This document shows, piece after piece, positions 5,857 to 27,532 of a DNA stretch of 63,595 bases. Under the pieces are notes generated by a model. The model was given only the letters and a program-made list of their open reading frames with translations, did not search any database and was not told where the DNA came from. Positions within the stretch are counted from its first letter, which is position 1. Each line of letters begins with the position of its first letter. This DNA is from Candidatus Hydrogenedentota bacterium (lineage in GTDB: Bacteria > Hydrogenedentota > Hydrogenedentia > Hydrogenedentales > SLHB01): the NCBI GenBank assembly GCA_903925285.1, contig CAIYET010000115.1:1-63595 (forward strand), read 5' to 3'. Position numbers and translations under genes: made by a program.

Positions 5857-6508
5857 CGATATTGACCGACTGCCGTGGGATCAGGAACCTGGCGAGCCAA
5901 CCAAACACTTTGACAGGTTTGTGCGCTACAAGCTGATCGGACCCGACCGCACGCTGTACTCGGCCTATAACCAGTTCAAGGCACGCGGGGGCTCGGAAGG
6001 GCGTGTCTTTGCGGTGCCGGGAGCGTGGCGGAAGATCGCGAAACAATGGCGCTGGCAGGAGCGCGCTGAGGCATGGGATGCCGAGCAAAGGCGCGTGGAA
6101 GAAGCCAAGTGGCAGGCACGCCGCGCTGAACTGCGCGAACAAGAATGGGGCACTGCCACGCTGCTGCTGGACAAAGTGGCGCGTATGCTCAGTTTCCCAG
6201 TGGAACAAACCACGCGTTCAGTCACGAGCGCGGATGGGCAAACCATCAACACCACGATCATCAACCCAGCGCGCTGGTCGTTCGCCGATGCCGCCCGCCT
6301 GCTGGACGCATCGAGCAAGGTGCGCCGGCTTGCCGCTGAGATGGAAACCAGCCACGACGTCATCGAGCAAACCACGTCATGGGAAGATGAGCTGCTGGCC
6401 ATCTACAAAGACGGCAAGGTGACGCTGGAACGAATCGAGGAAGAGTTTGGACCAAACATCGCTGCGCGAATCTCTGCCCGGTCAGGCATACTACCAAGCA
6501 AAGCTTGA
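5849..6508 (+). CDS. Terminase small subunit (putative)
   Basis: WDQEPGE...F..Y and W...WRWQERAEAWD pattern; directly upstream of terL. Confidence 0.65.
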   Translation: MPNDIDRLPWDQEPGEPTKHFDRFVRYKLIGPDRTLYSAYNQFKARGGSEGRVFAVPGAWRKIAKQWRWQERAEAWDAEQRRVEEAKWQARRAELREQEWGTATLLLDKVARMLSFPVEQTTRSVTSADGQTINTTIINPARWSFADAARLLDASSKVRRLAAEMETSHDVIEQTTSWEDELLAIYKDGKVTLERIEEEFGPNIAARISARSGILPSKA

Positions 6509-8264
6509 GAAACTGCGTGGCGAGATCGAGCGCGAGGATCGCCTGCCCGATCCAGTGGACTGGATTCAAACCAACTTCTATATCATCGAGACCCGGGCAC
6601 CGCTCACCTTAGCCAAATACCAAGCGGCGGCATTGCGCGCCGCCATGGAACGCGATGAAACAACGGGGCTTTTCAAGTACAGCACGATAGTATGGTCTGA
6701 CTTGAAGAAGAGCGCCAAGACCACAATCGCTGGGGCAGTCTCGCTCTACTTTGCCTGCAACCGAAGACATGCGCGCATTCGCCTGGTGGGCAACGACTTG
6801 AAGCAAGCGGACTCGCGTGTGTTTCAGATGATCGCCGACTGCTGCAAGATGAACCCAGAGCTTGCAAAGGTCAGCCAAGTCACCCAGCACGCGGTCAAGT
6901 TCAAAAACGGGTCGGTGATTGAATCCGTCCCAGTGGATCCAAGCGGCGAAGCCGGCGGCAACGATGATCTCGTCGAATGGACGGAACTCTGGGCGGCTAA
7001 TGGTCAACCGCATCAAAAGATGTGGAGCGAGATGACGCTATCGCCGCTCAAGTACGGCAGATCATTTCGCTGGACGGATACTTATGCCGGCTACACGGGC
7101 GAGAGTCCGATCCTCGAGCAACTGTATCAAACTGGGGTGAAGGAAGGGCGCAAGCTCGATCTACGTGCCAGCGGCGCGCCCAAGGACTTGGAAGTATTTG
7201 CGAACGACGCCGCCCGCTTGTTTGTGCTATGGAACACGGAGCCGCGTCTGCCGTGGCAAACGCCTGAATACTATGCCCAGGAGCAAGCGTCGCTGACCGA
7301 AAGCGAATTTCTGCGTTTGCATCGAAATCAATGGACAATGAATTCTGAAGAGATCTTCGTGCCGTCCGAGTGGTGGGAAGCATGTCAAGTCGAGATTCCA
7401 CCGATCAAACGTGAAACCTTGTTTGTTTCAATGGATGCTGGGATTAGCTCGGACTGCTTCGCTATCGTCGCCGCGTCTCGCGTCAAAGGCAAAGCGGCGG
7501 TGCGTTATGCGCGAGCGTGGTATCCCAAGAAGGGGCAGAAGCTAGAATTTCGCAACGAAGAGAATCCCGATGACCCGGACTATCCTGAAGGCGAGCTGCT
7601 GCGCCTCATCAGGCGCTACAACGTGATCGAGGTTTGCTACGACCCATACCAACTGCACGACATGGCAACGCGGCTGAAGGGCAAAGCGAATTTCTACGAA
7701 TTTTCGCAAGGGAGCGAACGCGCGCTGGCGGACAAGCAACTGCGTGATGCCATCCGCGACCGCAACCTCTTGCACAATGGCGATCACGAGCTGACCAAGC
7801 ATGTGCGCAACGCGAACATCAAACACGCGACGGAGATCAGCAAGCTGCGCCTGGTCAAGCGCGCACCCAACATGAAGATCGATCTCGCGGTCGCGATGTC
7901 CATGGCGGTGCATCGCTGCTTGTTCGGCGCAACGGTCGCGGAAGAGTGGCTTGCCGCGGTAGGCACCAATCCGCAAGCGGCACCGCTGGAAGAGAATGAC
8001 TGGGCGCGTTTGCCGATACGCCCAGGGCAACCTGACTATGTCGTGCCGCGCATTACGCTCGATGGGCAAACGGCTGAAGCGACCAAGCCAAAACCGAAGC
8101 GACGCAAGACCATCGAGGTGGAAGTAGAAGAGGACGCTGAACCGACCCAGGAGCCGCAACACGCACCAGCGGAGATGCCAGCGCCGAGACCTGATCCAAC
8201 CATGGCGGATCGCCTGGGCATCCCACGTGTGGGCGGTGGACTGCCACCGCAACGCCGACGATAA
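6447..8264 (+). CDS. terL: Terminase large subunit with a Pro-rich C-terminal extension
   Basis: Walker A variant KKSAKTT, Walker B-like VEWTELW, RNase H-like SMDAGISSD, CYDPYQ and KIDLAVAMSMA. Confidence 0.9.
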   Translation: MDQTSLRESLPGQAYYQAKLEKLRGEIEREDRLPDPVDWIQTNFYIIETRAPLTLAKYQAAALRAAMERDETTGLFKYSTIVWSDLKKSAKTTIAGAVSLYFACNRRHARIRLVGNDLKQADSRVFQMIADCCKMNPELAKVSQVTQHAVKFKNGSVIESVPVDPSGEAGGNDDLVEWTELWAANGQPHQKMWSEMTLSPLKYGRSFRWTDTYAGYTGESPILEQLYQTGVKEGRKLDLRASGAPKDLEVFANDAARLFVLWNTEPRLPWQTPEYYAQEQASLTESEFLRLHRNQWTMNSEEIFVPSEWWEACQVEIPPIKRETLFVSMDAGISSDCFAIVAASRVKGKAAVRYARAWYPKKGQKLEFRNEENPDDPDYPEGELLRLIRRYNVIEVCYDPYQLHDMATRLKGKANFYEFSQGSERALADKQLRDAIRDRNLLHNGDHELTKHVRNANIKHATEISKLRLVKRAPNMKIDLAVAMSMAVHRCLFGATVAEEWLAAVGTNPQAAPLEENDWARLPIRPGQPDYVVPRITLDGQTAEATKPKPKRRKTIEVEVEEDAEPTQEPQHAPAEMPAPRPDPTMADRLGIPRVGGGLPPQRRR

Positions 8265-9099: not shown

Positions 9100-11769
9100 A
9101 TGCAACTAGCGCATTTGAACGTAGCCACAACCGCGCAAATCGCGCAACTAATGAAAACCAGCGCGAGCGTGCGCGCTATCGCGGCAACGTCATCGTCGCT
9201 CAAGCCAGGTATCCCGCACCAACCTGGGCGCGGTGATATACCGATGTCTTGGGCGCAGAATTTCATGCCACCTGGCTTCCCGCTGTCTCCCCTCGCTCCC
9301 CAACTGGGTGCCGCTCGCCAGCCCAACTATAACCAGAATCCGTCGTTAGAGCCGCGCGTGCAAAGTCGTTTGACGGCGCAAGCGGTCAGCACCGATTCAT
9401 CTGGGCGCACGCTTTACCAAGTCACCGATGACGAAGGCGCCTATCAGTTCGTCCCACGCGCTTATCAATTCCCACCAGCCGTCAATACCACGATCACGCC
9501 ACGCATTAGCTATGGTCTGATGTCGTTTGCGGATATTCAAGAACTGAGTTTCAGCACACCCGATGTCATGCTCTGCTGGAAGCTGCTCAAACGCGAGTTC
9601 AGCGGACTGAATCCTCATATCATTCACGATGACGGCGAACCTTGCACGGACAACAAGATCACGCGTTTGGCGCGCTATCCCGATGGCTACCACGGCATGA
9701 GCGTTTGGTTATCGCGCTGGTTCTACAACTCGGTGATTTACGGCGCACCCGCGCTGTATCTGCCGCGAGATCGCAAAACTGGGATGATCACCGGTCTCGT
9801 CAACGTCGATGGATCGACCATCTTCACGCTGATCGATGAAAATGCGGCGGTGCCGGCGCCACCTGCACCTGCGTTCTTGCAGATCATCTATGGCGTGCCG
9901 TATGGCTTTGCCAGCACGGAGCAACTTTGGTATAAACCGCAAGAGTTGCAAGTCAGTTCAGAGTATGGCATGGCGCTGGTCGAATCGGCGTATCTGCCGG
10001 CGATGCTGCTGAATAAAATCTGGCAGTATCAAACGGCTTGGTTCACCACGGGCACGATGCCCGAGTACGTCGTCAATGCTCCCCCTGGCTGGACCAATGA
10101 CCAGGTTGCCGCGTGGCTCGTCACCAAGTCGCAAGCGTTACAAGGCAATCCCGAACTGCGCACGCAGTTCGATGTCTGGCCCGCTGGCTTCACGCAAATG
10201 GCGAGCAAGAGCGTTGAATTTCGCAAAGATATTTACGACACGGCGAAGCGCGAGCTGATGGAGCACGCTGGCATCCCAATCGCAGAGGTCGGCGACACAC
10301 AGGGCCGCGGCGGACTGGGCGGCAAGGGCTTGATGGACGCGATGTCCCAGCAAGTGTTTCGCAAATCGTTTCTGCCGGCAATCAATGCGACGGCTGAACC
10401 GTTCAACGATGTGCTCGCGATCAACAAGCAAGAGTGCGATGACGGCGAGGTGTATCATCGCTTCGAGTGGAGCTTCCCAAAAGAAAGCATCGACCCCGCC
10501 AAAGAACGCGAGAAAGTAAATGAGGACTTTCAGAACGGCGGCTTGACGCTGGGCGAGTATCGCGAAGCCATCGGACAAGAACGCTTCAAGGATCAACGCG
10601 ATGACCTGATCTACTTGAAGGGCGGCGCCTTCATTGCGCCGGATGGCACGGTCTGGGCAAACGCTGGGAAGCAACAAGACCCAGGAGCGGATCCCGCGCA
10701 ATTCCCAGGCGTCCAGATTCCAGGGCAGAAACCACCGCAACCAAACGCGCAACACGCGCCCGGTCTCCCGCCCGGTGCTCCAAGCGGTCCAACGCAGGCG
10801 GCGGCTGATGCGCCAGGATCGGTTCAGAATCTATCCAAGTCCGCCGAGCATGATGGCGTGATCGCGTTGCGCGTGCCAGCGCCGATCGCGAATGACATCT
10901 TCCTGCAAGCGCAGGCGCAGATCAACGCGGGATTGGATGCGCTGGAGACGCCTGACCAATATGTTGCTTGGGGCGGCGAGTGGAATGACTTTGACCTAGC
11001 GAAGCGCGCCAACACCTTGGCAAAGCATTGCGGCGTGTGCCCGCCAACGGATGAGCAACCTGGGGACGATGCCTACTATGGCGCGCCCATCATGCGCAGT
11101 ACCACGGTGGATGCGCCGATCAATGGCGCCAACGGCACGGAGATCGTTGCGGTTTCACCCAAGGGTCTGGACTCGCGTCCATTCGCGTGGAAGCCCGAGG
11201 GCGATGAGAATGCCAAACTGAATGAACAGATCGGGCATCCCCAGTATTTGGCAGAAGAAGCGTGCTACCTGATCGACCGCACGCTGCAACTCTTCCTCGT
11301 GCCCGTGTCCTTTGTCGCCGAACTAGAGGGCGAGGGCGGCGCGGCGATTCACTGGGTCCTCAACAGCGGCGAGATCCTGCACGCGAACGACTACGCAGAA
11401 GACTGGGTGCAAGCGGCGGCTGTGCTCGATTTCATCTGTGGGCAAACGGATCGCACGCACAATCCGCACAAGTTGAACACCAACTATCTGACGCATCCCG
11501 ATGATCCAAGCCGTCCGATTCTGATCGACAATGGACTGGCGTTCCCAGTGGCAGAGAGTCCACGCAAGATTGCCAGTGACTTTATCAATGCCTGGGGCGA
11601 CCAACAGATCGATCCCGACCTGCTCGATGCGGTTGCCGCGTTGCGCGATAACACGGTCATCTGGAAGCGAGTCGCGCATCTCGTTGGTGCGGATCCAGTC
11701 GCGCAAGCGCTTGAACGCATCGACACGTTGGTCAGCGAAGGCGCGATTCCTGAGCAAGCGAGCGATTGA
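9100..11769 (+). CDS. Portal protein fused to a C-terminal PI3/4-kinase-like domain
   Basis: Portal-like core (LVNVDGSTI, AFLQIIYG, YGMALVE, WFTTGTMP, GLTLGEYREAIG), Pro/Gln linker, then FAWKP, EEACYLIDRTLQLFLVP, AVLDFICGQTDR and LIDNGLAFP. Confidence 0.8.
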   Translation: MQLAHLNVATTAQIAQLMKTSASVRAIAATSSSLKPGIPHQPGRGDIPMSWAQNFMPPGFPLSPLAPQLGAARQPNYNQNPSLEPRVQSRLTAQAVSTDSSGRTLYQVTDDEGAYQFVPRAYQFPPAVNTTITPRISYGLMSFADIQELSFSTPDVMLCWKLLKREFSGLNPHIIHDDGEPCTDNKITRLARYPDGYHGMSVWLSRWFYNSVIYGAPALYLPRDRKTGMITGLVNVDGSTIFTLIDENAAVPAPPAPAFLQIIYGVPYGFASTEQLWYKPQELQVSSEYGMALVESAYLPAMLLNKIWQYQTAWFTTGTMPEYVVNAPPGWTNDQVAAWLVTKSQALQGNPELRTQFDVWPAGFTQMASKSVEFRKDIYDTAKRELMEHAGIPIAEVGDTQGRGGLGGKGLMDAMSQQVFRKSFLPAINATAEPFNDVLAINKQECDDGEVYHRFEWSFPKESIDPAKEREKVNEDFQNGGLTLGEYREAIGQERFKDQRDDLIYLKGGAFIAPDGTVWANAGKQQDPGADPAQFPGVQIPGQKPPQPNAQHAPGLPPGAPSGPTQAAADAPGSVQNLSKSAEHDGVIALRVPAPIANDIFLQAQAQINAGLDALETPDQYVAWGGEWNDFDLAKRANTLAKHCGVCPPTDEQPGDDAYYGAPIMRSTTVDAPINGANGTEIVAVSPKGLDSRPFAWKPEGDENAKLNEQIGHPQYLAEEACYLIDRTLQLFLVPVSFVAELEGEGGAAIHWVLNSGEILHANDYAEDWVQAAAVLDFICGQTDRTHNPHKLNTNYLTHPDDPSRPILIDNGLAFPVAESPRKIASDFINAWGDQQIDPDLLDAVAALRDNTVIWKRVAHLVGADPVAQALERIDTLVSEGAIPEQASD

Positions 11770-11779
11770 GGTTGGATGT

Positions 11780-12601
11780 ATGAATCCAACGCTACGCCGC
11801 CCCATCCAAGCGCAGGTCAAACGCAAAACCGCGCTCGCGCTGAATCAATGGTATCAGAGCGTCTACCATTCGATTCGCTTTGTGCAAAAGCAAGAACCCG
11901 TCATCGACTGGGAAGCCGAAAAGAAAAAGTTTGAGGATGAACTGCTGGCGATCATGGCCTGGGCATCGAGCGAATACAGTCGCATCGAGGAAGACTTCTG
12001 GGCGCAGCGCGGGAAGATCATCTCACCCGACGCGCAGCGCATCCTCGACCAATACGAGATCGATGCCGGCAAGCGGCTCGCGCGAATCGGCGACACGACC
12101 GAGCGCAATACCAAGTCTGCCGTCGAAAACTGGGATGGGACGGATCGCAACGACTTGATCGCTGGCGTGAACCGCTGGTACGGCGAAGATCGCGCCGCCA
12201 ACATCGCCAAGATGGAAACGGGGTTTCTGCTGACGGCTGGCGCGCTCATCACAATGATGGCCATAGACACGCATCAGTGGATTTGGCGACACGGCGAAGA
12301 GTGCGACACGGGACCATGCGAGCTGATCTGCGCGCCGAATGAAGGCGAGGTGTTTTCATACGATGTGCCAATGCCGCCGATGAGCACTCATTACGGTTGC
12401 GACTGCTATGGCGAGCCATACGATCCAAGCATGGTCTTCGTGCCGGGCGGAGCGGTGGATGCGATCAACGCGCCGGCTGAACACGAAGTCAACATGGATC
12501 CACCTGGACTGGGAACGCCAGAGCATCATCTATGGACAAAGCAAGTCGTGCCTGGTGGGTTGAGACGCAGTCGAACGGAAAATACTCGGCGGCGACGCTG
12601 A
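11780..12601 (+). CDS. MuF/SPP1 gp7-like minor head protein
   Basis: RAANIAKMET, W..W, C..C and HYGCDC; directly after the portal. Confidence 0.75.
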   Translation: MNPTLRRPIQAQVKRKTALALNQWYQSVYHSIRFVQKQEPVIDWEAEKKKFEDELLAIMAWASSEYSRIEEDFWAQRGKIISPDAQRILDQYEIDAGKRLARIGDTTERNTKSAVENWDGTDRNDLIAGVNRWYGEDRAANIAKMETGFLLTAGALITMMAIDTHQWIWRHGEECDTGPCELICAPNEGEVFSYDVPMPPMSTHYGCDCYGEPYDPSMVFVPGGAVDAINAPAEHEVNMDPPGLGTPEHHLWTKQVVPGGLRRSRTENTRRRR

Positions 12602-13140
12602 AGAAATCGCAGGCGTTGACACGAACTGCAATCAAAGCCACATACGACAGAACCCAGGAAACGCTCGGCAAGATGGGCGTGAAAGAGCTAACCGTCTATC
12701 GCGGGATCGATGTGAACAAGAAGCTGTTTCCAGGAAGACAGTATATCCTCAAAAGCAACGCGCTCGAATCATGGTCAACTGATCCAAAGACTGCTTCAAA
12801 GTTTGGCGGCGCCGTGCTGAAAGCCAAGATTCCCGCGTCACGCATCTACAGCACGGCACGCACTGGACCAGGATGTTTGAACGAGTACGAGGTGATCATC
12901 ATCGGCAACAAGAAGGGAACGCGCGACTACGGAACGGTGGTGAGCAACGTCAAGCACGGTCTGGCGCCTTGGCAGAAGATGGTCAAGGCAGACGAACCAA
13001 ACGAAGACGATGTCATCGACTTGGCGAACGACACCAACTCGGACTGGATCAAACGCGTAGACGATGGCAAGAATCGCGACGAAGAACTCGAAACACACGC
13101 GCAACTCGCGCAAAAGAGTAAGGATGAACACATACAATGA
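12532..13140 (+). CDS. ADP-ribosyltransferase (R-S-E clade), probably the C-terminal module of MuF
   Basis: VYRG...ESWSTD...NEYEV; frame is open from 12481 and overlaps the end of MuF. Confidence 0.75.
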   Translation: MDKASRAWWVETQSNGKYSAATLKKSQALTRTAIKATYDRTQETLGKMGVKELTVYRGIDVNKKLFPGRQYILKSNALESWSTDPKTASKFGGAVLKAKIPASRIYSTARTGPGCLNEYEVIIIGNKKGTRDYGTVVSNVKHGLAPWQKMVKADEPNEDDVIDLANDTNSDWIKRVDDGKNRDEELETHAQLAQKSKDEHIQ

Positions 13141-13384: not shown

Positions 13385-13725
13385 ATGGCTTTCACAGGAA
13401 ACATTTCGGCGACCGTACTCAACGGCAAAACATTGAGCGGGAGCATTGATCTGACGGGCAACGTGCCCGTGGGTATTCTGCTGCCCGACGCATTGACGAG
13501 CACGACGATGACATTCAATCGCAGTGACGATGGATTCAAGTGGGTGCCTGTCTACACCTCATCTGCCCAGCTCTCAATCACGGTCGCGGCTGGACGCTAC
13601 GTAGGGCTGAAGCAAGACGAGGTGTCGCAACTGCGCGGCATCAAATTCTTGCAACTCGTGTGCGGAAGCACCGAGGCGCCGACCGCATCATCACGGTCGT
13701 GACCGTCGCGCAAAGCACTCTATAA
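13385..13725 (+). CDS. Beta-rich phage protein (possible head decoration), with a 1-nt frameshift near 13675
   Basis: AAGGAG RBS; SGSIDL...GILLP...TFNRSDDG; C-terminus GADRIITVV is in a shifted frame. Confidence 0.5.
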
Positions 13726-13727
13726 AC

Positions 13728-13755
13728 TTGACAGTTCAACCGCAAAGCATAAAAT
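13728..13755 (+). promoter_or_regulatory. Promoter for the glycosyltransferase island
   Basis: TTGACA-16 nt-TAAAAT. Confidence 0.5.
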
Positions 13756-13840
13756 GGAGCCGATGTGCGTTAGCAACAGGCGCATAGTCGCATAACACTA
13801 ACGCCGATGGCGTGAACGTCGCTCCATCAGAAAGGCAAGG

Positions 13841-14292
13841 ATGCAATACAAGATCACGGCGTCGAGACTGGCTCGGTGGGCAAGAGCGGAAACAAGATCG
13901 CGCCACTGGCAATGCACCAGATGGCGATGCAAGCGGTTGGTCTTCCAATCTCAATCGAATTTTCGACGCAAAAGATCGTCGGCTACGTCACGGCTGCAAC
14001 TGAGACGGAAGCCGGCGTTTCTATTGAGGGGCTGTGCAGCCGTAAAGCAACGGATCAGCACCTCATTTTCGTCGTGCCTGGGATGCGCATCAACAAGAAA
14101 CACAACGAAGGCAAAACCATCGTCATCGATGACATCACCATGTTCGGATTTGCGATCACGACTGACCCCGACGACGACAGTCTCACCCCAATCAAAGAAG
14201 AGGCGACAGAGCAAGACAAAGACTGGGATGCCACGCTCGAACTTATCACGGCGCAATCAACGTGGCTCAATCCAAGGCGATTTACCGAATGA
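13841..14292 (+). CDS. Hypothetical protein (frameshift near the start)
   Basis: RBS and ATG at 13841; main frame is 13876-14292. Confidence 0.45.
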
Positions 14293-15092
14293 GCCATAGA
14301 CTGAAATCCGTCAGCATTGTTGTTGGCACGATGAACCGCTTGCCATTGCTACAGCAGATGGTAGCGAGTGTATGCGAGGACATGCGCAACTTCTATGGAC
14401 GTTGGCAATTCGTGATCGTGGATTCTAGTGACAATCTGGAAACAGCCGACTGGATTACGCATCACAAAAGCGTTGGTTTCACCTATAAAAAGATGGAACA
14501 ACAAGGCGCCGTCGCCGCGTTCAATGCCGGCTTTGCATTGGCGCAATGCGACTTCGTCGTCGCGCTGAACGATGACTGCATCATCCATCCGCCGGTCATT
14601 CCAGTCGCGATCCAGATGCTTCAGAACGACCCGCAGATCGGTCAAATCGCGATCCCCTACAACGTGCCGACCAATAACGCGGCGGGGCATAGTGAGCTGC
14701 TGCTCCAACACATCAACGTCAATGGGCATGTGGTGATGTACGCCAATTTCAGCGTCATGCGGCGCGCGCTCGGAGCTGAACTGGGTTGGTGGCAAAACAT
14801 CTACCAGCAGTACGGCGGCGACACGCATCTATCCATCGCCGTCTGGAATGCGGGTCTCAAGGTCGTGGGGCTCAATCCACCTGGTTTCATCGAGCACATC
14901 GAAGCGATGGACGGCACCCGCCGTGGCAATGGCGGGGCGGATCGGCTCTTTGAATACTGGCAGGGTTGGGAAGGGCCAGATCGTTCTACATTAACCAAGA
15001 TGAGGCACGATGATGATGATAAATGTTATCACGGCACTGGCGTCCGCCAAAGACTTTCTAACCCAAGTCACGGAGCGCATTCCGCCCGGTGA
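14289..15092 (+). CDS. GT2-family glycosyltransferase
   Basis: VSIVVGTMNR, VIVDSSD, AFNAGF, VVALNDD and YGGDT. Confidence 0.85.
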   Translation: MSHRLKSVSIVVGTMNRLPLLQQMVASVCEDMRNFYGRWQFVIVDSSDNLETADWITHHKSVGFTYKKMEQQGAVAAFNAGFALAQCDFVVALNDDCIIHPPVIPVAIQMLQNDPQIGQIAIPYNVPTNNAAGHSELLLQHINVNGHVVMYANFSVMRRALGAELGWWQNIYQQYGGDTHLSIAVWNAGLKVVGLNPPGFIEHIEAMDGTRRGNGGADRLFEYWQGWEGPDRSTLTKMRHDDDDKCYHGTGVRQRLSNPSHGAHSAR

Positions 15093-15276
15093 AAAGCAAC
15101 GACATTCACTGACGCTGAACGATTCAGGGTTGGAGCTGACGCTGTTCGTTGGAAAATACTATCTGCCGATCTCGCTGAACGAAGCCGACTTGGTCGCCAG
15201 CGTGGACAGTCTAGTCAATGACATCGAGAGGATCTATCGCGATTTCACGAAACAGGAAGGCATCGATGCGAAATAA
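15010..15276 (+). CDS. Hypothetical protein
   Basis: 88 aa ORF within the operon. Confidence 0.55.
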   Translation: MMMINVITALASAKDFLTQVTERIPPGEKQRHSLTLNDSGLELTLFVGKYYLPISLNEADLVASVDSLVNDIERIYRDFTKQEGIDAK

Positions 15277-15378
15277 AATTATCTCAAGCAACTGGTTTGT
15301 CGCGCTGGTAGCACTCGCGTTTACAGGGATGGGTGTGGTCATCGTCAAGGCATTCATGGATGCACTCCGTATGCTGGG

Positions 15379-16656
15379 ATGGATTCAATGAACTCACCCC
15401 ATCTTTACGATTTCGGCGAAGAAAACTGGGAACGCAAACTGCATCTCGCGTGCGGCGGCATCTATCTGCTGGGGTACGAGAACTCGGACATTGTTGGCGA
15501 GGTGCGCGCCGCCGAGAACTTTGAGCCAAACCTCACTGACATCAAGGACTATTACGCTCGCCTCGATGGGTCGATCAGAAACCTGCCTGTGCGGCGCAAG
15601 ACCATTGTGGATCGCACGTTCAATTTCATCGATCCACCCTACGAACCTGGCACGGTCGATAAGATCGTGTGCATTCAAGCGCTGGAACACCTGAACCAAC
15701 AGAACGCGCATGCCACTCTCGCGCGCTGGTGGAACATCCTCAAGCCCGGTGGCGTACTGATCGTGTCGGTGCCACGCATGGACGATACGCTCGAGCTGCT
15801 GCACCAACCTGACCGCGCTGACTTTGCGCGCCGGCACCTCGAAGGATCGCGACGTGATATTCACAACGTCCACCAATCGTGGTTCAACGCGCCGGACATT
15901 GAATGGCTGCTTGACCATCACGGGTTTACCCGTGTTTCATTATTGCCTAACTTCCACCTTTATCCCGCGCTGGTCGTGCGAGCGGTCAAGGCAGATCGCT
16001 TCGTGCCAGATCGACGCTACCAGATGCCCCTGCCGCATTACGACGAAACCTGTAAAACCGTGCTCGATGTCGGACCCGGCGCCTACCCTTTGCCCATGGC
16101 CACGCATTGCTTCGATGTGAACGATCGCTATGAGGACTCGCGCCGCGTGCCGTGTGACATCGGCGATGTAGAACACCTGCCCTACGATGACAACGCATTC
16201 GATTACGTCTACTGCTCGCATGTGCTCGAGCATACGCTGGATCCGCTGAAAGCATTGCGCGAACTGCAACGAGTCGGCAAGCGCGGATATGTCGAAGTGC
16301 CGGCAGTCACCATGGACTTTCTTATGCAGCACGGCGATGCCCACACACGCGCTGACGGCAAGGCAGGGCGATGGATGTGCTTACCCATTCCAGGCGGCAT
16401 CGTCTTCGTCGAGCGGAGCGATCAACTGACCGACGCGGGATTCAATGACGCACGCTGGCGCAACCTGTGGCAGATGATCACGCAATACCAAGTGCCGCTC
16501 AACGCCAACGAGCAATTCTTTCGTGAATTTTTCTGGAGCCACCAAGACACACTCAATGTGTCGGCGAGCTGGAACAAGCCGACCATCAACAACGCGCGCG
16601 CGGTCGCACTGCACATCGTTGAAGATGGGCAAGCGGTACGCTGGGAGATCCTATGA
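15379..16656 (+). CDS. Tandem class I SAM-dependent methyltransferase (two domains)
   Basis: KLHLACGG...ALEHL...ILKPGG and VLDVGPG...LPYDDNAFDYVYCSHVLEH. Confidence 0.85.
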   Translation: MDSMNSPHLYDFGEENWERKLHLACGGIYLLGYENSDIVGEVRAAENFEPNLTDIKDYYARLDGSIRNLPVRRKTIVDRTFNFIDPPYEPGTVDKIVCIQALEHLNQQNAHATLARWWNILKPGGVLIVSVPRMDDTLELLHQPDRADFARRHLEGSRRDIHNVHQSWFNAPDIEWLLDHHGFTRVSLLPNFHLYPALVVRAVKADRFVPDRRYQMPLPHYDETCKTVLDVGPGAYPLPMATHCFDVNDRYEDSRRVPCDIGDVEHLPYDDNAFDYVYCSHVLEHTLDPLKALRELQRVGKRGYVEVPAVTMDFLMQHGDAHTRADGKAGRWMCLPIPGGIVFVERSDQLTDAGFNDARWRNLWQMITQYQVPLNANEQFFREFFWSHQDTLNVSASWNKPTINNARAVALHIVEDGQAVRWEIL

Positions 16657-16901
16657 TTCAAAACACGGCATCGCGATTCGGAAAGTTTTGCATAGCGCAT
16701 GGGCAAGCGATTGCAATGGCGTCAATCATCGAGGCGCAGACGCCAATCACGCAAGGAATTCGCGTTCAAGGCACAACTTTGGTGCGCTTTCACGACGATG
16801 AGAAGGGCGTCACCTGCTGGCAACCTCTTACATCGATAACGTCTCTTTCTAGCGCAAGTGCGGCAATCGCTTGTCTGCCGGACAAGGACTTGCTACGATG
16901 A
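16653..16901 (+). CDS. Hypothetical protein
   Basis: ATGA start/stop coupling at both ends. Confidence 0.5.
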   Translation: MIQNTASRFGKFCIAHGQAIAMASIIEAQTPITQGIRVQGTTLVRFHDDEKGVTCWQPLTSITSLSSASAAIACLPDKDLLR

Positions 16902-17473
16902 TCACCGTCACCGTCATGGCGCACACGAAAACAATGGCGAGCACCCTACCACATTTCCGCAAGATGTTTGCCAAGAACTGGCAAGGGCAATCCTTTACGA
17001 TTGCCGGTAGTGACAAGGTATGGAGCGATGCCGCCATCGATTATTTCAGCACCTTAGATGGAAACGTGACAGTGCTTATGCTCGACGACTATCTGCTGTC
17101 GGATCACGTGGATCATCACAAGGTCAACCTGTGTTGCAACTACCTGCGTGTTCATCTGGAAATTGGGTGCATTCGATTGAACCCGTGTCCTGGTCCAGAG
17201 ATGGACTATTCTGAATTTCCGTGGCTGGGCGAGTTCAGTCGAACCCAGGATTACATTCTCAGTTTGCAACCGACTGTATGGCGCGTGTCCTGCTTGATCG
17301 ATCTGATGCGCGAGGGTGAGAGTGCCCACGATCTCGAACGATTGGGACAACAACGCGCCCGCGACTCCAAATGGCGGTTTCTCGGAACACGCGAGAACCT
17401 GATCAGCATCAACAACTTGATGCGGATGGGCGACATCGATCCTGCGGTGCTCGACTGGGTGAATAGCCAGTGA
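16898..17473 (+). CDS. GT-A-like glycosyltransferase (short)
   Basis: VLMLDDY, IRLNPCPGP, SLQPTVW and GESAHDLE. Confidence 0.55.
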   Translation: MITVTVMAHTKTMASTLPHFRKMFAKNWQGQSFTIAGSDKVWSDAAIDYFSTLDGNVTVLMLDDYLLSDHVDHHKVNLCCNYLRVHLEIGCIRLNPCPGPEMDYSEFPWLGEFSRTQDYILSLQPTVWRVSCLIDLMREGESAHDLERLGQQRARDSKWRFLGTRENLISINNLMRMGDIDPAVLDWVNSQ

Positions 17474-18012
17474 ACTTGAACATCGACCTGACAGGCGTGC
17501 TCTTCTTGGATACCGAAACGACGGGTCTCGGATCCGATGACGAGATCGTTCAGATCGCCGTGCTCGACGTGAAGGGAACTGTCTTGCTCGACGAGCTAGT
17601 CAAACCTCACAAGCCCATCGGCGAGGATGTCATTAAGATTCACGGCATCACGGATAAGATGGTCGCTCATGCGCCGACCTTCGACCAAGTTTGGCTCAAG
17701 CTCTATCAAATGATCATCGCGCCAGCGCCATCGCGCATCTACGCCTACAACGCGGAATTTGATCGCCGCATGATTCTGCAATCTCTGCGAGCGTGCGGGG
17801 TCGATGAAAAGCAAGTCGTCATCGAAATGACGTGCGCCATGCGCTTGTATGCTCAAATCAAGGGTCTGCGCTGGGCAAAGCTGACTGATGCGCTCGCGCA
17901 ATGCGGGATCGCGCAACAAGCCAAGCATAATGCGGCGGTGGATGCGGACAGCGTTCGCAAGCTGATGCGGAAGATCGCAGGAATGGAACAAACCAATGCT
18001 AGTCATGAGTGA
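17470..18012 (+). CDS. DEDDh 3'-5' exonuclease (DnaQ-like)
   Basis: LDTETTG, IHGIT, YNAEFD and HNAAVD. Confidence 0.9.
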   Translation: MNLNIDLTGVLFLDTETTGLGSDDEIVQIAVLDVKGTVLLDELVKPHKPIGEDVIKIHGITDKMVAHAPTFDQVWLKLYQMIIAPAPSRIYAYNAEFDRRMILQSLRACGVDEKQVVIEMTCAMRLYAQIKGLRWAKLTDALAQCGIAQQAKHNAAVDADSVRKLMRKIAGMEQTNASHE

Positions 18013-18192
18013 ACTGACTCTGCTCTATCACGAAACACGCGTGGCCATTCGCTATGGCGAGACGTTGACATTCGGGTCAGACCACACACGCCTTTCGCTG
18101 TATGGCGAAGAGATTCACATTTCAAACTATCTTCCATTTGGCGCGGCGTACCAGATCGGCATCGATCCAGCCAGGCAACAAAGCGATCAAGA

Positions 18193-18600
18193 ATGGATTG
18201 GCGCGCAATTAAACTTCGGGCGGCACTGGTGAAAAAGATTTTCACCTACGCCACGTCGATGCGCCGCAACCGCGTCCCGGCTGAACAAAAGATGTTCGGG
18301 TTGCTGCGCGCCTGGCGCATCGAATTCAAGACCCAGGTCGTCATCGGTCATTACATCGCCGACTTCGTGATCGACAAACTGGTCATCGAACTCGATGGAC
18401 CAACGCACGTCGGGCGCGAGCAATACGACCGCGAGCGGGATGCTTATTTGCGGAAGTCTGGTTGCAATGTGATGCGATTTCCAAACCGCATTGTGTACGA
18501 AGACCCGCGCCAAATCAAAGCCGAGATCTTCAAGCAATACCCGATGCTGCAGGCGCGCGCGGCAATCCGCAAATCAAAACTATTCGGAAGGTGGACGTGA
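18193..18600 (+). CDS. DUF559/Vsr-like endonuclease
   Basis: YIADF...LVIELDG..H...DRERDAYL..SG..VMRF. Confidence 0.85.
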   Translation: MDWRAIKLRAALVKKIFTYATSMRRNRVPAEQKMFGLLRAWRIEFKTQVVIGHYIADFVIDKLVIELDGPTHVGREQYDRERDAYLRKSGCNVMRFPNRIVYEDPRQIKAEIFKQYPMLQARAAIRKSKLFGRWT

Positions 18601-18909
18601 TGGCATGGATCAAGACAGATGACCGACTCCCGCCCGGGCAAATGGGTTTTGGGTCGCCACAATCGAGGAACCTGGATTGACAGCGATGATCCTGAGAATG
18701 TGAACTGCGTTGTCGTCAAACTTAAAAAAGGCATCAGCCAGCGGGAACGCAATGGTCTTTCAGACGACGACTCAAGGAAACGTCTTTTCACGAGCGGCAA
18801 TAACCTTGTCCCGTACAGCTTTCACACGTTCGGACCCGACAATTTCTTTGGTCAAACTATTACTCTCTGGCAACCCATCGAAGAAGCGCAACAGGTGGAA
18901 TCCAGATGA
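18600..18909 (+). pseudogene. Hypothetical protein (MAWIKTDDRLP start), frameshifted
   Basis: N-terminus and body are in different frames, switching near 18635. Confidence 0.45.
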
Positions 18910-19796
18910 AAGTAACATTCGCAGGGATCGTCTTCAACGGCGACCACTTTCTCGAGCAAGTCATTCGCGCCGTCAAGCCATTCGGCACGGTCGTGTTCGT
19001 CGAGGGACCGACCGCGCACTATCAAAAACTGGGATTCAAGAAAAGCAGTGACCGCACCAATCGAATCCTCGAGGACTTGCGCATTCCAGTAATCCATGGC
19101 TGCTGGGAAGAAAAAGATGAGGAAGCCGCGGCGACCGCTCGCCTGATCCCCGAAGACACGGACTTTGTTTGGTGGATCGATTCCGACGAAGTGTGGGACA
19201 CGAAGGACATTCAACGGATCCTCGCTTTGCTTGAGACCGGTCAATATGACAGCGTCGCGTTCAAGACCTGGAGCTACTTCGCCGGCTTCGAGTATGTCGT
19301 CAGCGGTTGGGAGCGCGCGCAACCGTTCCACCGCATTCAACGCTGGTATCCGGGCGCGCAATGGGCAACCCACCGCCCGCCGACCGTGAACGATCCAAAG
19401 ACAAGCAAGCCGTGGCGCGAGGGCGGACGCCATCTCTCGCACGAAGAGACCGAATCTATGGGGTTGAATCTCTACCATTATTCATACGTCTACCCAAGCC
19501 AGGTCGAAGCCAAGTCGCGCTATTACGCGGACTATAATCCAGCGATCTGCATTCCCGATTACTATTGGACCGTGTTCTTGCCGTGGGCGAAAGGCAATTT
19601 CGCTGAGCGCAAAGAGATCGAGCGCAAATGGCAAGGCGTGCATAACTTCATACCCTCGTACCGCGGCGACACGTTCCCCGTGAAAAGCATCCTGCCGCAT
19701 CCCGACGCAATTAACAAGGCAATGCAAAAACTGGATGCGCGCTGGCTCGAGGAAATGGGGGTTTTGGAGCAAATACTGAAATGGATTGTCGCGTGA
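18906..19796 (+). CDS. GT-A/GT2-like glycosyltransferase
   Basis: IVFNG..FL, FVEG, SSDRT, WWIDSDEVW and YHYSYV. Confidence 0.75.
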   Translation: MKVTFAGIVFNGDHFLEQVIRAVKPFGTVVFVEGPTAHYQKLGFKKSSDRTNRILEDLRIPVIHGCWEEKDEEAAATARLIPEDTDFVWWIDSDEVWDTKDIQRILALLETGQYDSVAFKTWSYFAGFEYVVSGWERAQPFHRIQRWYPGAQWATHRPPTVNDPKTSKPWREGGRHLSHEETESMGLNLYHYSYVYPSQVEAKSRYYADYNPAICIPDYYWTVFLPWAKGNFAERKEIERKWQGVHNFIPSYRGDTFPVKSILPHPDAINKAMQKLDARWLEEMGVLEQILKWIVA

Positions 19797-19869
19797 CGTG
19801 GCAGGAAAGCCCGCTGTATTGCAAATCCATGCGAAATCGGCTGGCGCGACAATTCTCGTAAGAGGTGAA

Positions 19870-20347
19870 ATGGCACAACTGGGCGCACACATCCTCGGCG
19901 ACTTGAGCACGCAACCACGCTGCGAGCATCCGCTGTCCTACTGGGAAGGGCGGGACGCCTGGCTCGATTGCCGCGAACCCGATCACCTCGTCAGCGGCGA
20001 AGCCAACTTCGGACAAGAGGTGCGGATCGTCGTTCAGTCGCACGACAAGTACGACTTTAACATCGTCGTGGCACGACCGGTCACGGTGCATCGACTGGCG
20101 TTCGTCGCGTCGTTCGGGCGCGATTGTCGCGCTGGGATCAGTTGTCCGCTCGATGGACGTGGCGGCATGGACAATGGTTGCCGGCAACCCCGCGCAAGTG
20201 ATCGCAATATACAATCACGATCAACGACGCTGGATCAAGACACCCACGCTTGAAGAGCGAGTCTTGGCAATCGAAACAAATCTATTCTCGCTCACGGCGA
20301 GTTTGCAAGAACTGACTCGCTCAATGCGAGAGAACTTGGAGCAATGA
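19870..20347 (+). pseudogene. Left-handed beta-helix acyltransferase, disrupted
   Basis: VRIVVQSHD...RPVTV, then DVAAWTMVAGNPAQVI in another frame. Confidence 0.6.
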
Positions 20348-20854
20348 TGCGAATCGCATTGTACAAACGAAGTTTCAGTCTGACCGCGCGATATGATAGT
20401 TTCAAATACCGATCAGACAAACGCTGGCGCGCGTTGCAACGCATTTGCCTGTGGATCCTCGCCAAGATCGGCGCTAACGAGACGCAGGCGATGGTGACGT
20501 TCACAACCATCGATGAGCAAAGGGTGTTAGATCTCGCGAAAGCGCATATGAGCGAACTCTATTCTGCTGGATTGCATCCGCGCACCATCATGCTGGGTCG
20601 CACGTGGTCTTGAACAACTTAAACAAGATCGATCTCGGAACCGAACCTTTCGAGATGAACGATGGACTCGGCACGCCAATCGATTGGAGCTGACATGAAG
20701 CAACAAATGGTGGCACCACCCCGAGGACAGCATCGAGACCATCGCCGATTACCTCGGCATAAAAATTTAGAGGAGGAAATATGGACAACCCAACCCAGGA
20801 CACCCCGAACGCGCAATCCAAAAATCTCACGGGTCTTTTTGATGAGGCGACAAA

Positions 20855-21097
20855 ATGAGCCAACACCTCGAGGAGCGCGACCCGATCGCCATCATCCAAT
20901 GGCGTAACTTTCTCATGGATGGATTAATCGAGGAACTCGCACGCAACCGTGAGCTATTGGACGCATACAAAGCCAACAATGCTACATTGGGAGCGATGGT
21001 GATCGCGGCGAAAATTAAAGAGGCAGAGGATGCCATCCGAGAAGATGACGTGGTCAGGATGATCCACGCTTATCGAGAATTGACGGAGTCGGAATGA
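20855..21097 (+). CDS. Hypothetical protein
   Basis: 80 aa ORF coupled to the MTase start. Confidence 0.5.
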   Translation: MSQHLEERDPIAIIQWRNFLMDGLIEELARNRELLDAYKANNATLGAMVIAAKIKEAEDAIREDDVVRMIHAYRELTESE

Positions 21098-22290
21098 TAA
21101 ACTTTTTACAAGGGCACGTGCTCGAGCAGCTGAAAACGATTGGCGACGGCACGGTCCAGACCATCGTCACAAGTCCGCCCTATTGGGGACTTCGCGCCTA
21201 TGGAACCGAGCCGCAAATCTGGCGCAATGGGCACGAGCTATGCGCGGAGCACGAATGGCAATCTTTCACACAAATTAAAAAGCGTCCCGATTTGCCCCCC
21301 GAACCGAACAGCAACCCGAACATCTTTTGTTCAGCCGGGACGCGGTTGCGGCGCATCAAAGCAATAAACCTTGACGACTACGGGCGCGGCAAGCGCGAGG
21401 ACATTGTGATGAAGTCCGACACCTGCGCTGTTTGCGGAGCATGGCGCGGCGAGCTGGGACAAGAGCCGACGCCGGCGGAATACGTGCGCCACCTGGTCGA
21501 GATTTTCAGATATGCCCGGCGGACGCTGCGCGACGACGGTACGCTCTGGCTCAACCTCGGCGATTCGTACGCAGGAGGAAACGCGCCCGGCAACAAGGTG
21601 ATTGGGAATCCTGAATTCAACAAGAACCGACCCAGCCGAGCGGCGACCCTGACCGGCGGAAAAAAAACGCCGGCTGGACTGAACGCCAAGAACCTGATCG
21701 GCATCCCCTGGCGTGTTGCCTTCGCGCTCCAGGACGATGGCTGGATTTTGAGAAACGACATCATCTGGGCGAAGCCGAACCCCATGCCCGAAAGCGTCAC
21801 CGACCGCTGCACGCGCTCGCACGAATACGTTTTTTTATTCAGCAAGTCGCCCAGATATTATTTCGATGCGGAGGCGATAAAAGAGGAGAGCGTAACAAAA
21901 AGTATGCCAGGTAGTAATTACACAGATACCAGGATGACCCACGGCACAGGTGGCGGAAATTCAGGATTCAAAAAAGCGTTTGAGAAAATGAAAACCGGAG
22001 AACTCAACGGACGCAACAAGCGCGATGTGTGGACCGTGAGCACATTGCCCTACAAAGGCGCCCACTTCGCCACGATGCCGCCCAAGCTGGTCGAGCCGAT
22101 GATTCTCGCCGGCTGCCCAGCCGGTGGGACCGTGCTCGATCCATTTGGTGGCAGCGGGACCGTGAGCCAAGTCGCCGAGCGCCTGGGACGCAGCAGCATC
22201 TACATCGACCTCAACCCAGCCTACCTCGAACTCGCCCAAGAGCGAAACAAGCAACGCGCGCTGACCCCAGCGAGCGAGGGCGAATCCTAA
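21094..22290 (+). CDS. N4C/N6A DNA methyltransferase (beta class)
   Basis: VTSPPY, IIWAKPNPMPES, HFATMP and VLDPFGGSGT. Confidence 0.92.
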   Translation: MINFLQGHVLEQLKTIGDGTVQTIVTSPPYWGLRAYGTEPQIWRNGHELCAEHEWQSFTQIKKRPDLPPEPNSNPNIFCSAGTRLRRIKAINLDDYGRGKREDIVMKSDTCAVCGAWRGELGQEPTPAEYVRHLVEIFRYARRTLRDDGTLWLNLGDSYAGGNAPGNKVIGNPEFNKNRPSRAATLTGGKKTPAGLNAKNLIGIPWRVAFALQDDGWILRNDIIWAKPNPMPESVTDRCTRSHEYVFLFSKSPRYYFDAEAIKEESVTKSMPGSNYTDTRMTHGTGGGNSGFKKAFEKMKTGELNGRNKRDVWTVSTLPYKGAHFATMPPKLVEPMILAGCPAGGTVLDPFGGSGTVSQVAERLGRSSIYIDLNPAYLELAQERNKQRALTPASEGES

Positions 22291-22291
22291 A

Positions 22292-23658: not shown

Positions 23659-23784
23659 CAGTACGGGTGGAGATTCCGCTCGGTGTAACATACACCACGC
23701 TCCAATGGGTGGGCGCGTACACGCAGGGAACTATTCCAAGCTGGCGTGATTTGCATTTTCCGAAACCAAGATTCAAGGAGTAAC

Positions 23785-24036: not shown

Positions 24037-24072
24037 AGGCACTAACATACTTGACACACCGCGAATGTAAAA

Positions 24073-25924: not shown

Positions 25925-25977
25925 AAGGCGCCGACTTTCTAACACGGACAACCGTGTGGAAAGTCGGCGCCTTTTTT
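25925..25977 (+). terminator. Intrinsic terminator in the leader of the capsid operon
   Basis: 15-bp perfect arms AAGGCGCCGACTTTC/GAAAGTCGGCGCCTT, an inner stem and a T-run. Confidence 0.8.
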
Positions 25978-25993
25978 GTTACTAGGAGGAACT

Positions 25994-27532
25994 GTGGCAG
26001 ACGACAACCTCGCAGAATCAACCGAACCTTTCGGAAAATTTACGTTCAACATCCCCATCACCAAGGTCGATGAGGTCAAGCATGAGGTTTGGGGCACGGC
26101 TTGCGTCGAGGAACCCGACCGCGGCGATGAGCAGATGGACTATAACTCGTCCAAGCCGCACTTTGTCAAATGGTCGGAAGACACCTTCAAGCGCTCCTGC
26201 GGGAAATCATTCGGCAACGTGCGCGCCATGCACCAGCCCATTGCCGCTGGGATCGTGATCGATTTCAAAGCTGACGATGCGACCAAGTCATTCCCGATCG
26301 GCACGCACATCACCGATGAAAACGAATGGTACAAGTGCCTCACTGGCACATACACCGCATTCAGCATCGGTGGCAAGTACGGCAAACGCTGGATGACGCG
26401 CACCGATGACGGTCGCACGATCATGTCCTATACCGCCATCCCGAACGAGGTTTCCCTCGTCGATGTGCCCGCCGTCCCGCACGCGACCTTCTCCGTCGTC
26501 AAAGCAGACCACAGTATAGAAGCTCGCGAATTTCTCGCCAAAGACGAACTGACCGTGAGCGTCAACGGCAAGATGCCGTTCGGCGAATTCATGTCCCTCG
26601 CTTTACAAAAACTAATCCCAGGTTTCCCGAAGCCAACCAACCGCAAGGCAGAGGACGAAACCATTTTGCAATACGCCGCCACGACCACACCGCAAGCGTT
26701 CACGCCCGCGAGCGTGCCATCCACCGCCGCCCTGCAAGCCAACCACCCGCAAGCCCAGGTCATCAATCCTGACAGCATTCCCGTCTCCAGCGCCATGCGC
26801 AAGTATCCCGATGGGCGATCCATGCCCGTCCTGGCAAAAGAGGTCGGCGATGCCCCGGGTCTGCGTCACGGCGATCCGGGCAGCAAGAGCATCTGTGAGC
26901 ATTGCAAGAATTTCCGCGATGTCGCGCCGGGCTATTGCCGCTTGTATGATTTCCCATCGCCCAAGGACTGGACCTGCGATTCTTTCACATTGGAAGATGG
27001 GACTGGGGAACCGGACGAAATGGCGCACGTCGCCAAGCTGACCAAAGCAGATGTCAAATGCCCGTCGTGTGGCGAAGCCATCGCCATCGAAAAAGCCGGC
27101 GACTTGAAATGCTCGGCGTGCGGCAAAGCGCTGACCGCGACTGATGACACGGAGAGTGGCGGATTCAAGCTCGCTTTGTCAACGCCAGCGGCTATTTCCG
27201 CGCAAACTGAGATCACCGATGACGACGCGGCCACCAAGATGGCTGACCTTGTGGGGATCGCGAAGAAAGCTCGCGATCTGCCGGGATCGCTGCTCAAAGG
27301 CGGAAGCGACCGCGCTACGTATGGCGACCCCGTGAATAAAGCTTACGCCTGCGACACCAAGGCGCACGCTTTCATTTCCATTCAAAAATTCAATGCTGGC
27401 ATCGGAGCAGATCAATACTCCAAACGCGAATGGGCGATACTCGGGCGCCGACTTCGCAACCTCGCCAGCACGACCTTTCAACGATCGTACCGATACAACC
27501 CGCGCGAGAAGCAAATCGAGCGCGAATTCTAA
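25994..27532 (+). CDS. Prohead protease (XkdF/HK97-like) with Cys-rich and DUF6582-like appended domains
   Basis: VWGTA, VRAMHQPIAAG, FSIGG and EVSLVDVPA; CEHC..C..WTC; CPSC..CSAC; YGDP...DT..H; AGGAGG RBS. Confidence 0.8.
   Translation: MADDNLAESTEPFGKFTFNIPITKVDEVKHEVWGTACVEEPDRGDEQMDYNSSKPHFVKWSEDTFKRSCGKSFGNVRAMHQPIAAGIVIDFKADDATKSFPIGTHITDENEWYKCLTGTYTAFSIGGKYGKRWMTRTDDGRTIMSYTAIPNEVSLVDVPAVPHATFSVVKADHSIEAREFLAKDELTVSVNGKMPFGEFMSLALQKLIPGFPKPTNRKAEDETILQYAATTTPQAFTPASVPSTAALQANHPQAQVINPDSIPVSSAMRKYPDGRSMPVLAKEVGDAPGLRHGDPGSKSICEHCKNFRDVAPGYCRLYDFPSPKDWTCDSFTLEDGTGEPDEMAHVAKLTKADVKCPSCGEAIAIEKAGDLKCSACGKALTATDDTESGGFKLALSTPAAISAQTEITDDDAATKMADLVGIAKKARDLPGSLLKGGSDRATYGDPVNKAYACDTKAHAFISIQKFNAGIGADQYSKREWAILGRRLRNLASTTFQRSYRYNPREKQIEREF

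Follow-up and report, generated by a model that had tools for sequence, protein, structure and literature searches.

The portal gene of an uncultivated phage, carried on a contig binned with Candidatus Hydrogenedentota, encodes a kinase domain as well as a portal. The stretch of DNA analysed, referred to below as the window, is the whole 63,595-nucleotide contig CAIYET010000115.1. One open frame in it with an ATG start, at positions 9100 to 11769 of the plus strand, specifies a protein of 889 amino acids (P0001). Its N-terminal half is a phage portal, and its C-terminal domain is, as judged from sequence profiles and structural models, a bilobal kinase of the phosphatidylinositol 3-/4-kinase (PI3/PI4-kinase) superfamily, closest to the type II PI4-kinases. 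An earlier, sequence-only reading of this DNA had proposed that a portal and a PI3K/PI4K-like kinase domain share one frame here, and the profile, profile–profile and fold evidence bears it out. The strings it quoted from the translation, RPFAWKPEG, EEACYLIDRTLQLFLVPV, AAVLDFICGQTDRTHNPHKLNTNYLTHP and RPILIDNGLAFP, are all present. As to what the kinase does, there is about an even chance that it is an effector carried by the virion on its portal and acting, as infection starts, on targets in the host that are probably proteins.

The portal core comprises residues ~135–522 (9502..10665, plus strand, as are the other parts of this gene given below). It lies within a match to PHROG 2662, ‘portal protein’, at E 1.1e-23 (residues 114–561). 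In an AlphaFold2 (AF2) model of the full-length protein, made from a 42-sequence alignment (A6) and having a mean predicted local distance difference test score (pLDDT) of 76.2, the core is mostly at 75–96. Foldseek searches with this model retrieved the phage 812 neck/portal protein at E 6e-13 and the HK97 portal at 9e-10 (target template modelling score 0.68), and the portals of a gene transfer agent (GTA), T5 and Mu were also among the matches. The Pfam Phage_portal profile (PF04860) gave E 1.3e-4 and 21.7 bits, under its cut-off of 39.1. By tblastn the portal part has counterparts in nine phage records, at 23–30% identity; eight of the matched genes carry a portal annotation and one is labelled ‘hypothetical protein’. 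The matched gene in Arthrobacter phage Sonali is annotated ‘portal and MuF-like fusion protein’ and the matched portal gene in Mufasa8 is named, in one record, as a MutT/NUDIX hydrolase, so that related portals in cultured phages also bear appended modules. The gene is also where a portal gene is looked for, beside that of the large terminase: the latter is at 6447..8264 (plus strand; PHROG 9 TerL, E 1.8e-48; Pfam TerL_nuclease, E 2.3e-15) and the portal starts at 9100. The region preceding the core, residues 1–134 (9100..9501), is mostly modelled with low confidence, pLDDT being below 50 at residues 1–13, 15–18, 21–33, 67–89 and 124–130. It aligns with relatives, and the alignment with one of them, P0013, begins at residue 1.

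The kinase domain comprises residues 642–889 (11023..11766). An alignment of the domain with 16 short relatives (A4) was used as a profile against the 177,635 sequences of the PDB (hmmsearch) and matched PI4K II-beta (4wtv) at E 7.7e-6, with further matches to type II PI4-kinases (9hhm, 8.8e-6; 4hnd, 1.7e-4; 4pla, 6.4e-4) and to FAM20A (3e-3). With the type II enzymes it shares the alpha-C helix and the ‘VP’ after it, as well as the blocks ‘LDYI..N/Q.DR...NWL’ and ‘IDNGLAFP’. From the weaker and shorter phmmer matches of the window domain a set of 38 proteins was taken (E 8e-10 to 2e-5); 37 of these match PF00454 (PI3_PI4_kinase) at E<=1e-3, and alignment of A4 with the set by hhalign gave a probability of 100% and E 2e-48 over 215 columns.

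The likeness to kinases is well outside what chance would give, and structural comparison points the same way. The AF2 model of residues 631–889 has a mean pLDDT of 89.5 and a predicted template modelling score of 0.89. Foldseek, which the sequence-only reading had named as a check on its proposal, does find a kinase fold: PI4K II-alpha is the top match (E 6.6e-7) of 32 at E<=1e-3, and among the matches listed at that level all are kinases or the pseudokinase Fam20A. The VIA scan, which is independent of Foldseek and covered 48,161 chains, again put PI4K II-alpha highest (Z 16.9, root-mean-square deviation 4.0, 223 residues aligned). It was followed by Fam20C (14.7), CtkA (12.2), HipA (10.6), CotH (9.9), MavQ (9.1) and actin-fragmin kinase (9.0), and the 18 chains at Z>=8 are 17 kinases and one lanthipeptide synthetase entry. 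The type II PI4-kinases (human PI4K II-alpha and II-beta; 4pla, 4hnd/4hne, 4wtv, 8a5x) are thus the best solved match by profile, Foldseek and VIA, yet identity to them is only ~19–20%, and the window domain differs in being compact (~250 residues), in standing on a phage portal and in having a 6-residue insert in its catalytic loop. The likeness is one of fold and motifs only, and the domain is not filed as a member of that group. HipA, CtkA, Fam20C and CotH share its atypical-kinase fold with lower scores than PI4KII. The motifs had been described from sequence as PI3/4-kinase/HipA-like; the superfamily stands and so does likeness to HipA at the level of the fold, but not membership of HipA, nor closeness to the class I–III PI3-kinases. 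Assignment to HipA was rejected, P0001 having no HipA_C or HipA_2 match and a Z for HipA well under that for PI4K II-alpha; of the 38 distant relatives, only two touch HipA_2.

The domain opens with a conserved segment, K642..G645 V646...D656 (‘LAKHCGVC...DDAYYGAPI’), which is invariant in the family, is also present at the N-terminus of stand-alone forms and is modelled at pLDDT 82–90. It therefore belongs to the domain and not to the linker. A kinase domain beginning at about 11100 had been claimed; the domain holds, and its start is earlier, the codon for the conserved K642 being at nucleotide 11023. Bacterial and phage PF00454 proteins (the SCO1664 family, TIGR03843, and WXG100- or MuF-linked forms) have the same Lys, Glu, DR...N and DNG motifs, while the portal-linked clade is distinguished from them by its own N-terminal ‘K..GV...DD.YYGAPI’ segment and by an ‘NYLTHPDD’ motif.

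Alignment of 158 proteins to a hidden Markov model (HMM) of A4 yielded 173 domain rows, the query and the sequences from which the HMM was built being included. The predicted ATP-binding lysine, Lys698 of FAWKP (11191..11193), is on strand beta-3 (693–699 in the model) and is Lys in 145 of 151 non-gap rows. The predicted alpha-C glutamate is one of Glu719-Glu720 (11254..11259), in a helix that aligns with ‘YLSEAGAYLVD’ of PI4K II-beta. Family conservation places the catalytic loop at Asp784-Arg785...Asn795 (11449..11484), and Asp810-Asn-Gly of ILIDNGLAFP (11527..11535), the predicted DFG-equivalent metal-binding motif, aligns with IDNGLAFP of PI4K II-alpha. In non-gap rows Asp784 is kept in 164 of 168, Arg785 in 166 of 168, Asn795 in 162 of 168 and Asp810 in 164 of 170. 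Of the 147 rows that cover all the sites, 136 have the complete set, namely Lys, Glu (719 or 720), Asp, Asn and Asp, and P0001 has all five (K698, E719/E720, D784, N795, D810).

The loop departs from the canonical PI3/PI4-kinase pattern, which is DRHxxN. Ten residues separate Asp784 from Asn795 in P0001, where 136 of 162 rows have four; in the other 26 the number is three (1 row), five (12), six (4), seven (1), nine (5) or ten (3). The three rows with ten are those of P0001 and of two proteins from other contigs, P0002 and P0012, in which the sequence of the loop is similar. Being common to these, the insert is a conserved feature of a clade, at the extreme of the range of loop length that is tolerated. 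The loop region is modelled at pLDDT 83–86. It had been suggested from the sequence that the loop is atypical and that the domain may be a pseudokinase. Atypical it is, and with the catalytic residues intact the second concern is weakened, though not removed. From the pattern of conservation the domain is probably, with some room left for doubt, catalytically competent.

Portal and kinase are joined in P0001 by a disordered linker of ~120 residues. The Pro/Gln-rich character ascribed to it is confirmed: the stretch identified by composition and by pLDDT below 50, residues 523–592 (10666..10875), has 13 Pro, 11 Ala, 9 Gly and 9 Gln among its 70 residues. Residues 607–641 are also below 50 in the full-length model, and there is one helix, 594–610. 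What lies in this interval in a relative is informative. BLASTP against P0013 (986 amino acids) gives two blocks, P0001 1–606 matching P0013 1–580 and P0001 622–889 matching 716–984, so ~135 residues of P0013 correspond to only ~15 in P0001. P0013 residues 577–701 are an intact 2H phosphoesterase domain (LigT/Acb1-like; Pfam 2_5_RNA_ligase2, E 3.9e-13). As the missing block is the 2H domain of P0013, P0001 retains just its two edges (residues ~583–636, 10846..11007). The alignment is most simply accounted for by loss of ~120 residues of 2H cargo from P0001 through internal deletion.

A stop or a frameshift between the two halves would have separated them, and none is seen in the frame or in contig pieces from metagenomes. 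Thirteen such pieces, from four lake-water runs of one study, fall on 10300–11704 with no differing letters and no insertions or deletions; they are of low depth and partial cover (10377–10459 and 11705–11800 are uncovered) and the runs may be the window’s own source. The same fusion of portal and kinase is encoded on independent contigs.

That other fusions of this kind should be searched for had been proposed, and they are numerous. A word-indexed search gave ten relatives with 34–54% identity, and phmmer against 1.84 billion representatives gave 198 clusters (at 50% identity) with E<=1e-3, 100 with <=1e-10 and 83 with <=1e-30. Both portal and kinase are present in 78 of 158 retrieved relatives, with the portal N-terminal every time; since the HMM used to detect the portal was built from columns of A6, there is some circularity in the test for the 42 proteins of that alignment. 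Among the closest 100 relatives 74 have the portal, as do 70 of the 75 of those that are at least 600 amino acids long. The spacer between portal and kinase is 19–516 residues long, with a median of 114. Pfam matches in 50 close, long relatives were to Phage_portal (32), PI3_PI4_kinase (16, at E<=1e-3), 2_5_RNA_ligase2 (13), LigT_PEase (12), DUF5661 (11), Acb1 (3) and ADPrib_exo_Tox (2). In IMG/VR there are nine confirmed loci, and in all nine a match to the portal part of P0001 immediately precedes the kinase. Seven have the fused form, one frame of 897–1075 amino acids. The other two (L007, L009) are split, with the kinase frame overlapping the end of a preceding frame of ~700 amino acids.

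The wider kinase family is also found on other carriers, Phage_Mu_F (2 of the 38 more distant proteins), WXG100_2 (3 of 38) and WXG100 (2 of 38), and there are multi-effector giants: P0157 combines WXG100_2, ADPrib_exo_Tox, the kinase and GT4-conflict, and P0116 combines GDPD, a hydrolase, Gln_amidase and two kinase stretches. A scan of species-representative genomes for the pattern gave 12 matches, none of them confirmed, its sensitivity being limited and the result no proof of absence. The family is large and lies, so far, mostly in uncultivated phage contigs, with the kinase fused to the portal or encoded directly after it.

Two kinase-like domains occur in one protein in P0011, P0047, P0102, P0107, P0116 and P0118. 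In P0011 the PI3_PI4_kinase signature is more canonical in the second copy (35.8 bits) than in the one nearer the portal. That PF00454 match, at residues 1343–1378, was discounted for present purposes, as it belongs to an extra, second C-terminal kinase domain and not to the homologue of the window domain. In many relatives (P0002, P0008–P0011, L003–L005, L010) portal and kinase are separated by DUF5661, a domain of unknown function of ~60 residues; P0001 is without it.

Directly 3′ of the portal-kinase gene is a candidate for a MuF-like minor head protein (11780..12601, plus strand), with an ATG at 11780 and GAGG upstream. It has no Pfam or PHROG match; the rank-2 ESM Atlas cluster is Phage_Mu_F (0.94), a lead only. 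By tblastn its homologues are downstream of the portal-kinase in the IMG/VR loci L004 and L006. An ADP-ribosyltransferase (ART)-like frame follows (DRAT-like; 12532..13140, plus strand; Pfam DRAT E 6.7e-7, 29.2 bits against a cut-off of 25). The two overlap by 70 nucleotides in different frames, the ART frame opening after a stop near 12478, and may represent separate genes or else a MuF-ART fusion, a type common among phages, that carries a frameshift. The tail of the ART frame (residues 154–193, window 12991–13110) is 56% identical to residues 2–42 of P0012, a kinase relative that is itself 67% identical, and forms an acidic module of ~40 residues. This identity between the ART tail and the N-terminus of P0012 suggests that cargo modules are shuffled from one carrier to another; the shared module may mark a recombination joint, or may be a peptide by which head cargo docks.

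How might a kinase on a portal work? Portals form a dodecameric ring at one vertex of the capsid, and in established portal architecture the C-termini, which form the crown, point into the capsid interior. Twelve copies of the kinase, on flexible tethers, would consequently be built into each head and face its inside. For host targets to be reached, the kinase would have to be cut free and to exit with the DNA. Release from the portal could be by proteolysis of the linker, for instance by the candidate prohead maturation protease of 518 amino acids encoded at 25976..27532 (plus strand; PHROG 9427 ‘head maturation protease’, E 3.8e-11). The freed kinase would then leave the head with the DNA and phosphorylate host, probably protein, targets as infection begins.

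Such an effector role is favoured by the company that the kinase keeps: conflict-type cargo (2H/Acb1-like, ART) in relatives, and MuF and WXG100 carriers. The MuF-like and ART genes alongside are consistent with it. It also matches, by analogy, what has been predicted for domains fused to portal and MuF proteins and the precedent of the Dar proteins of P1. In passages of Iyer et al. 2017 and Burroughs et al. 2022, portal- and MuF-fused 2H, Nudix, ART, PBECR and InPase domains are predicted to be packaged and injected (PMC5512222, PMC9503650). The ‘polyvalent proteins’ treated there likewise combine a head carrier with enzymatic cargo, their genes standing among those for terminase, portal and MuF, and the 2H and ART domains described on portals and MuF in those passages are also found in relatives of P0001 (PMC5512222, PMC9503650). 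The marks of a polyvalent-type protein are found in the present case, with carrier and cargo in one frame among head genes, and the cargo also on other carriers and shuffled. In passages of PMC5512222 on kinases of polyvalent proteins, these are of the Ser/Thr/Tyr type and lack the C-lobe, and are not of the PI3/PI4K type. Full-text literature searches turned up no paper on DUF5661 and none on a portal-PI3/PI4K fusion, though the architecture lists that supplement PMC5512222 may include such fusions. Experimentally supported precedent comes from P1, whose capsid-internal Dar proteins are reported to be absent from emptied heads (PMC12810830).

The T7 gp0.7 kinase and the T4 Alt ADP-ribosyltransferase are examples of phage enzymes by which host proteins are modified as infection sets in. 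The former is expressed early and is not known to be a virion component; neither is fused to a portal. A passage of PMC5512222 cites T4 Alt as an enzyme that the head carries and injects.

A number of observations count against an effector kinase on the portal, or against the assignments on which it is built. The C-terminal 289 residues (601–889) have no Pfam family at E<=1 and do not reach the gathering score of PF00454. With that threshold not reached, and with the non-canonical spacing in the loop, the domain is filed at superfamily level. The same C-terminal piece gave no significant phmmer match in the PDB, the best (E 0.19) being to the WD-repeat part of PkwA, and its match to NCBIfam TIGR03843 (SCO1664 family) is weak, at E 1.3e-4 and with a score of 21.4 bits where the cut-off is 172.4. 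The loop is without the His of DRH and has an insert seen in only 3 of 162 rows, so that kinase activity could be impaired. The solved structures that come nearest include both lipid kinases (PI4KII, MavQ) and protein kinases of secretory or spore-coat type (Fam20C, CotH), which leaves room for more than one class of substrate. Portal subunits remain in the capsid, inside which there is no ATP, and a folded domain of ~28 kDa would need to unfold to exit. With limited sensitivity, a profile search of the phylum of the bin found the domain in 1 of 135 genomes, the bin itself (G000), and in 0 of the 134 others; tblastn of the domain, likewise of limited sensitivity, matched no cultured phage among 50,697 records. 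Lastly, the read support for the frame is of low depth and possibly from the source sample. Two further searches with the C-terminal piece gave, for PHROGs, only phrog_18941 (E 0.058) and, for PADLOC, no match.

The confinement of the portal to the capsid and of ATP to the cytoplasm would be no difficulty if the kinase worked in the producing cell, during head assembly, phosphorylating phage scaffold, capsid or portal proteins or, late in infection, host factors, with fusion serving for co-expression and local concentration. CotH, a spore-coat kinase, and Fam20C (Z 9.9 and 14.7) are among its fold neighbours, and the split forms of L007 and L009, overlapping right after the portal, suit assembly partners that are co-translated. 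However, the domains that are co-fused in relatives (2H/Acb1-like, ART) and the MuF/WXG100 carriers typify delivered conflict effectors and not assembly factors, and the gain, loss and shuffling of cargo, as in the 2H deletion and the ART-tail module, are unexpected for a core assembly function. A role in assembly is accordingly judged unlikely. Regulation of packaging, raised in the sequence-only reading, was subsumed under it and set aside as a candidate of its own, there being no link between the kinase domain and the terminase.

A module that binds nucleotide and does not transfer phosphate could serve in the head as a structural plug, a sensor of DNA or ATP or a docking platform. The six-residue insert splitting the Asp784–Asn795 loop, the absent His, the pseudokinase FAM20A among both profile and fold matches, and the failure of the P0001 sequence to match a Pfam kinase all speak for such a pseudokinase. 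Pseudokinases usually lose some of the catalytic residues, yet all five are kept in P0001, P0002 and P0012, as in 136 of the 147 family rows that cover the sites. Moreover, inserts of 1–6 residues are present in this loop in several lineages which retain the Asp and Asn, and the loop is itself modelled at pLDDT 83–86. That the domain is a pseudokinase is quite improbable.

It is just as doubtful, and for other reasons, that the substrate is a small molecule, a lipid or a nucleic acid, whether RNA ends or nucleotide immune signals handled together with the 2H domain of relatives, or a membrane lipid at entry. The best structural matches (PI4K II-alpha and II-beta) are lipid kinases, and MavQ (Z 9.1) is a further neighbour. 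Kinase and 2H are together in 13 of the 50 close relatives, and 3 of the 50 have an Acb1 match. Portal-fused 2H domains have been proposed, in passages of PMC5512222 and PMC9503650, to degrade nucleotide signals or to process RNA ends. On the other side, P0001 has lost its 2H and kept the kinase, which argues that the kinase works without 2H, and no ligase or other RNA-repair partner is seen near the gene among the Pfam and PHROG matches of the window. Many of the fold neighbours (Fam20C, CtkA, HipA, CotH, actin-fragmin kinase) are protein kinases. To our knowledge most bacteria lack phosphatidylinositol, and no such lipid substrate would be expected in them.

Phage genes run throughout the contig, which has no bacterial flanks; no exact terminal repeat of 20–399 bases was found at its ends. 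It is one (C115) of the 1133 contigs of a bin of 8.28 Mb that is 96% complete and 6.7% contaminated. Given that contamination, the lack of flanks and the absence of the kinase domain from the other 134 genomes of the phylum, assignment of the host by binning is uncertain. Beyond the portal, MuF-like and ART genes, the head module is interrupted by ~12–13 kb (13385–25800), which is unusually long, before the block with the protease candidate and possible capsid gene. Methyltransferase-like genes are present in this gap, at 15379–16656 and 21094–22290 (PHROG 67, E 1e-66). A frame of 812 amino acids (27393–29831) overlaps the protease candidate by ~140 nucleotides; its only match is to PHROG 13692, of unknown function (E 9e-37), and it may be a capsid or scaffold gene. 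A tail fibre is encoded at 40652–44266. Further on, at 50277–52262 and 54033–55904 (−), are genes for an FtsK/SpoIIIE-like ATPase (PHROG 1358, E 3e-46) and a ParB-like protein, a hint of a plasmid-like or segregating lifestyle or of an extra system for handling DNA.

A broader proposal can be put forward tentatively, as possible though short of probable. In it the portal-linked domains would be a widespread and hitherto undescribed class of virion-delivered kinases: twelve active, tethered, type II PI4K-like domains per head would be cut by the prohead protease, exit with the DNA and phosphorylate host defence or translation factors before phage gene expression. Loop inserts would tune the choice of substrate, and the portal C-terminus would be a general, recombining dock for counter-defence cargo (kinase, 2H/Acb1-like, ART, DUF5661).

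The carrier is a known one and the cargo is new. Enzymes fused to portal or MuF proteins are predicted to be ‘first-strike’ effectors carried in the head, few of which have been tested so far, and kinases of the PI3/PI4K superfamily add a whole enzyme class to their repertoire. The family is also large, with at least 78 clusters at 50% identity having both portal and kinase. As the portal is present in fixed copy number and at a known position, it offers a clean system for the release and ejection of tethered cargo, for the action of a kinase in the first seconds of infection and for the swapping of modules between carriers. For the bacterial PF00454 and SCO1664-like kinases, which are poorly understood, the fusion provides a functional foothold.

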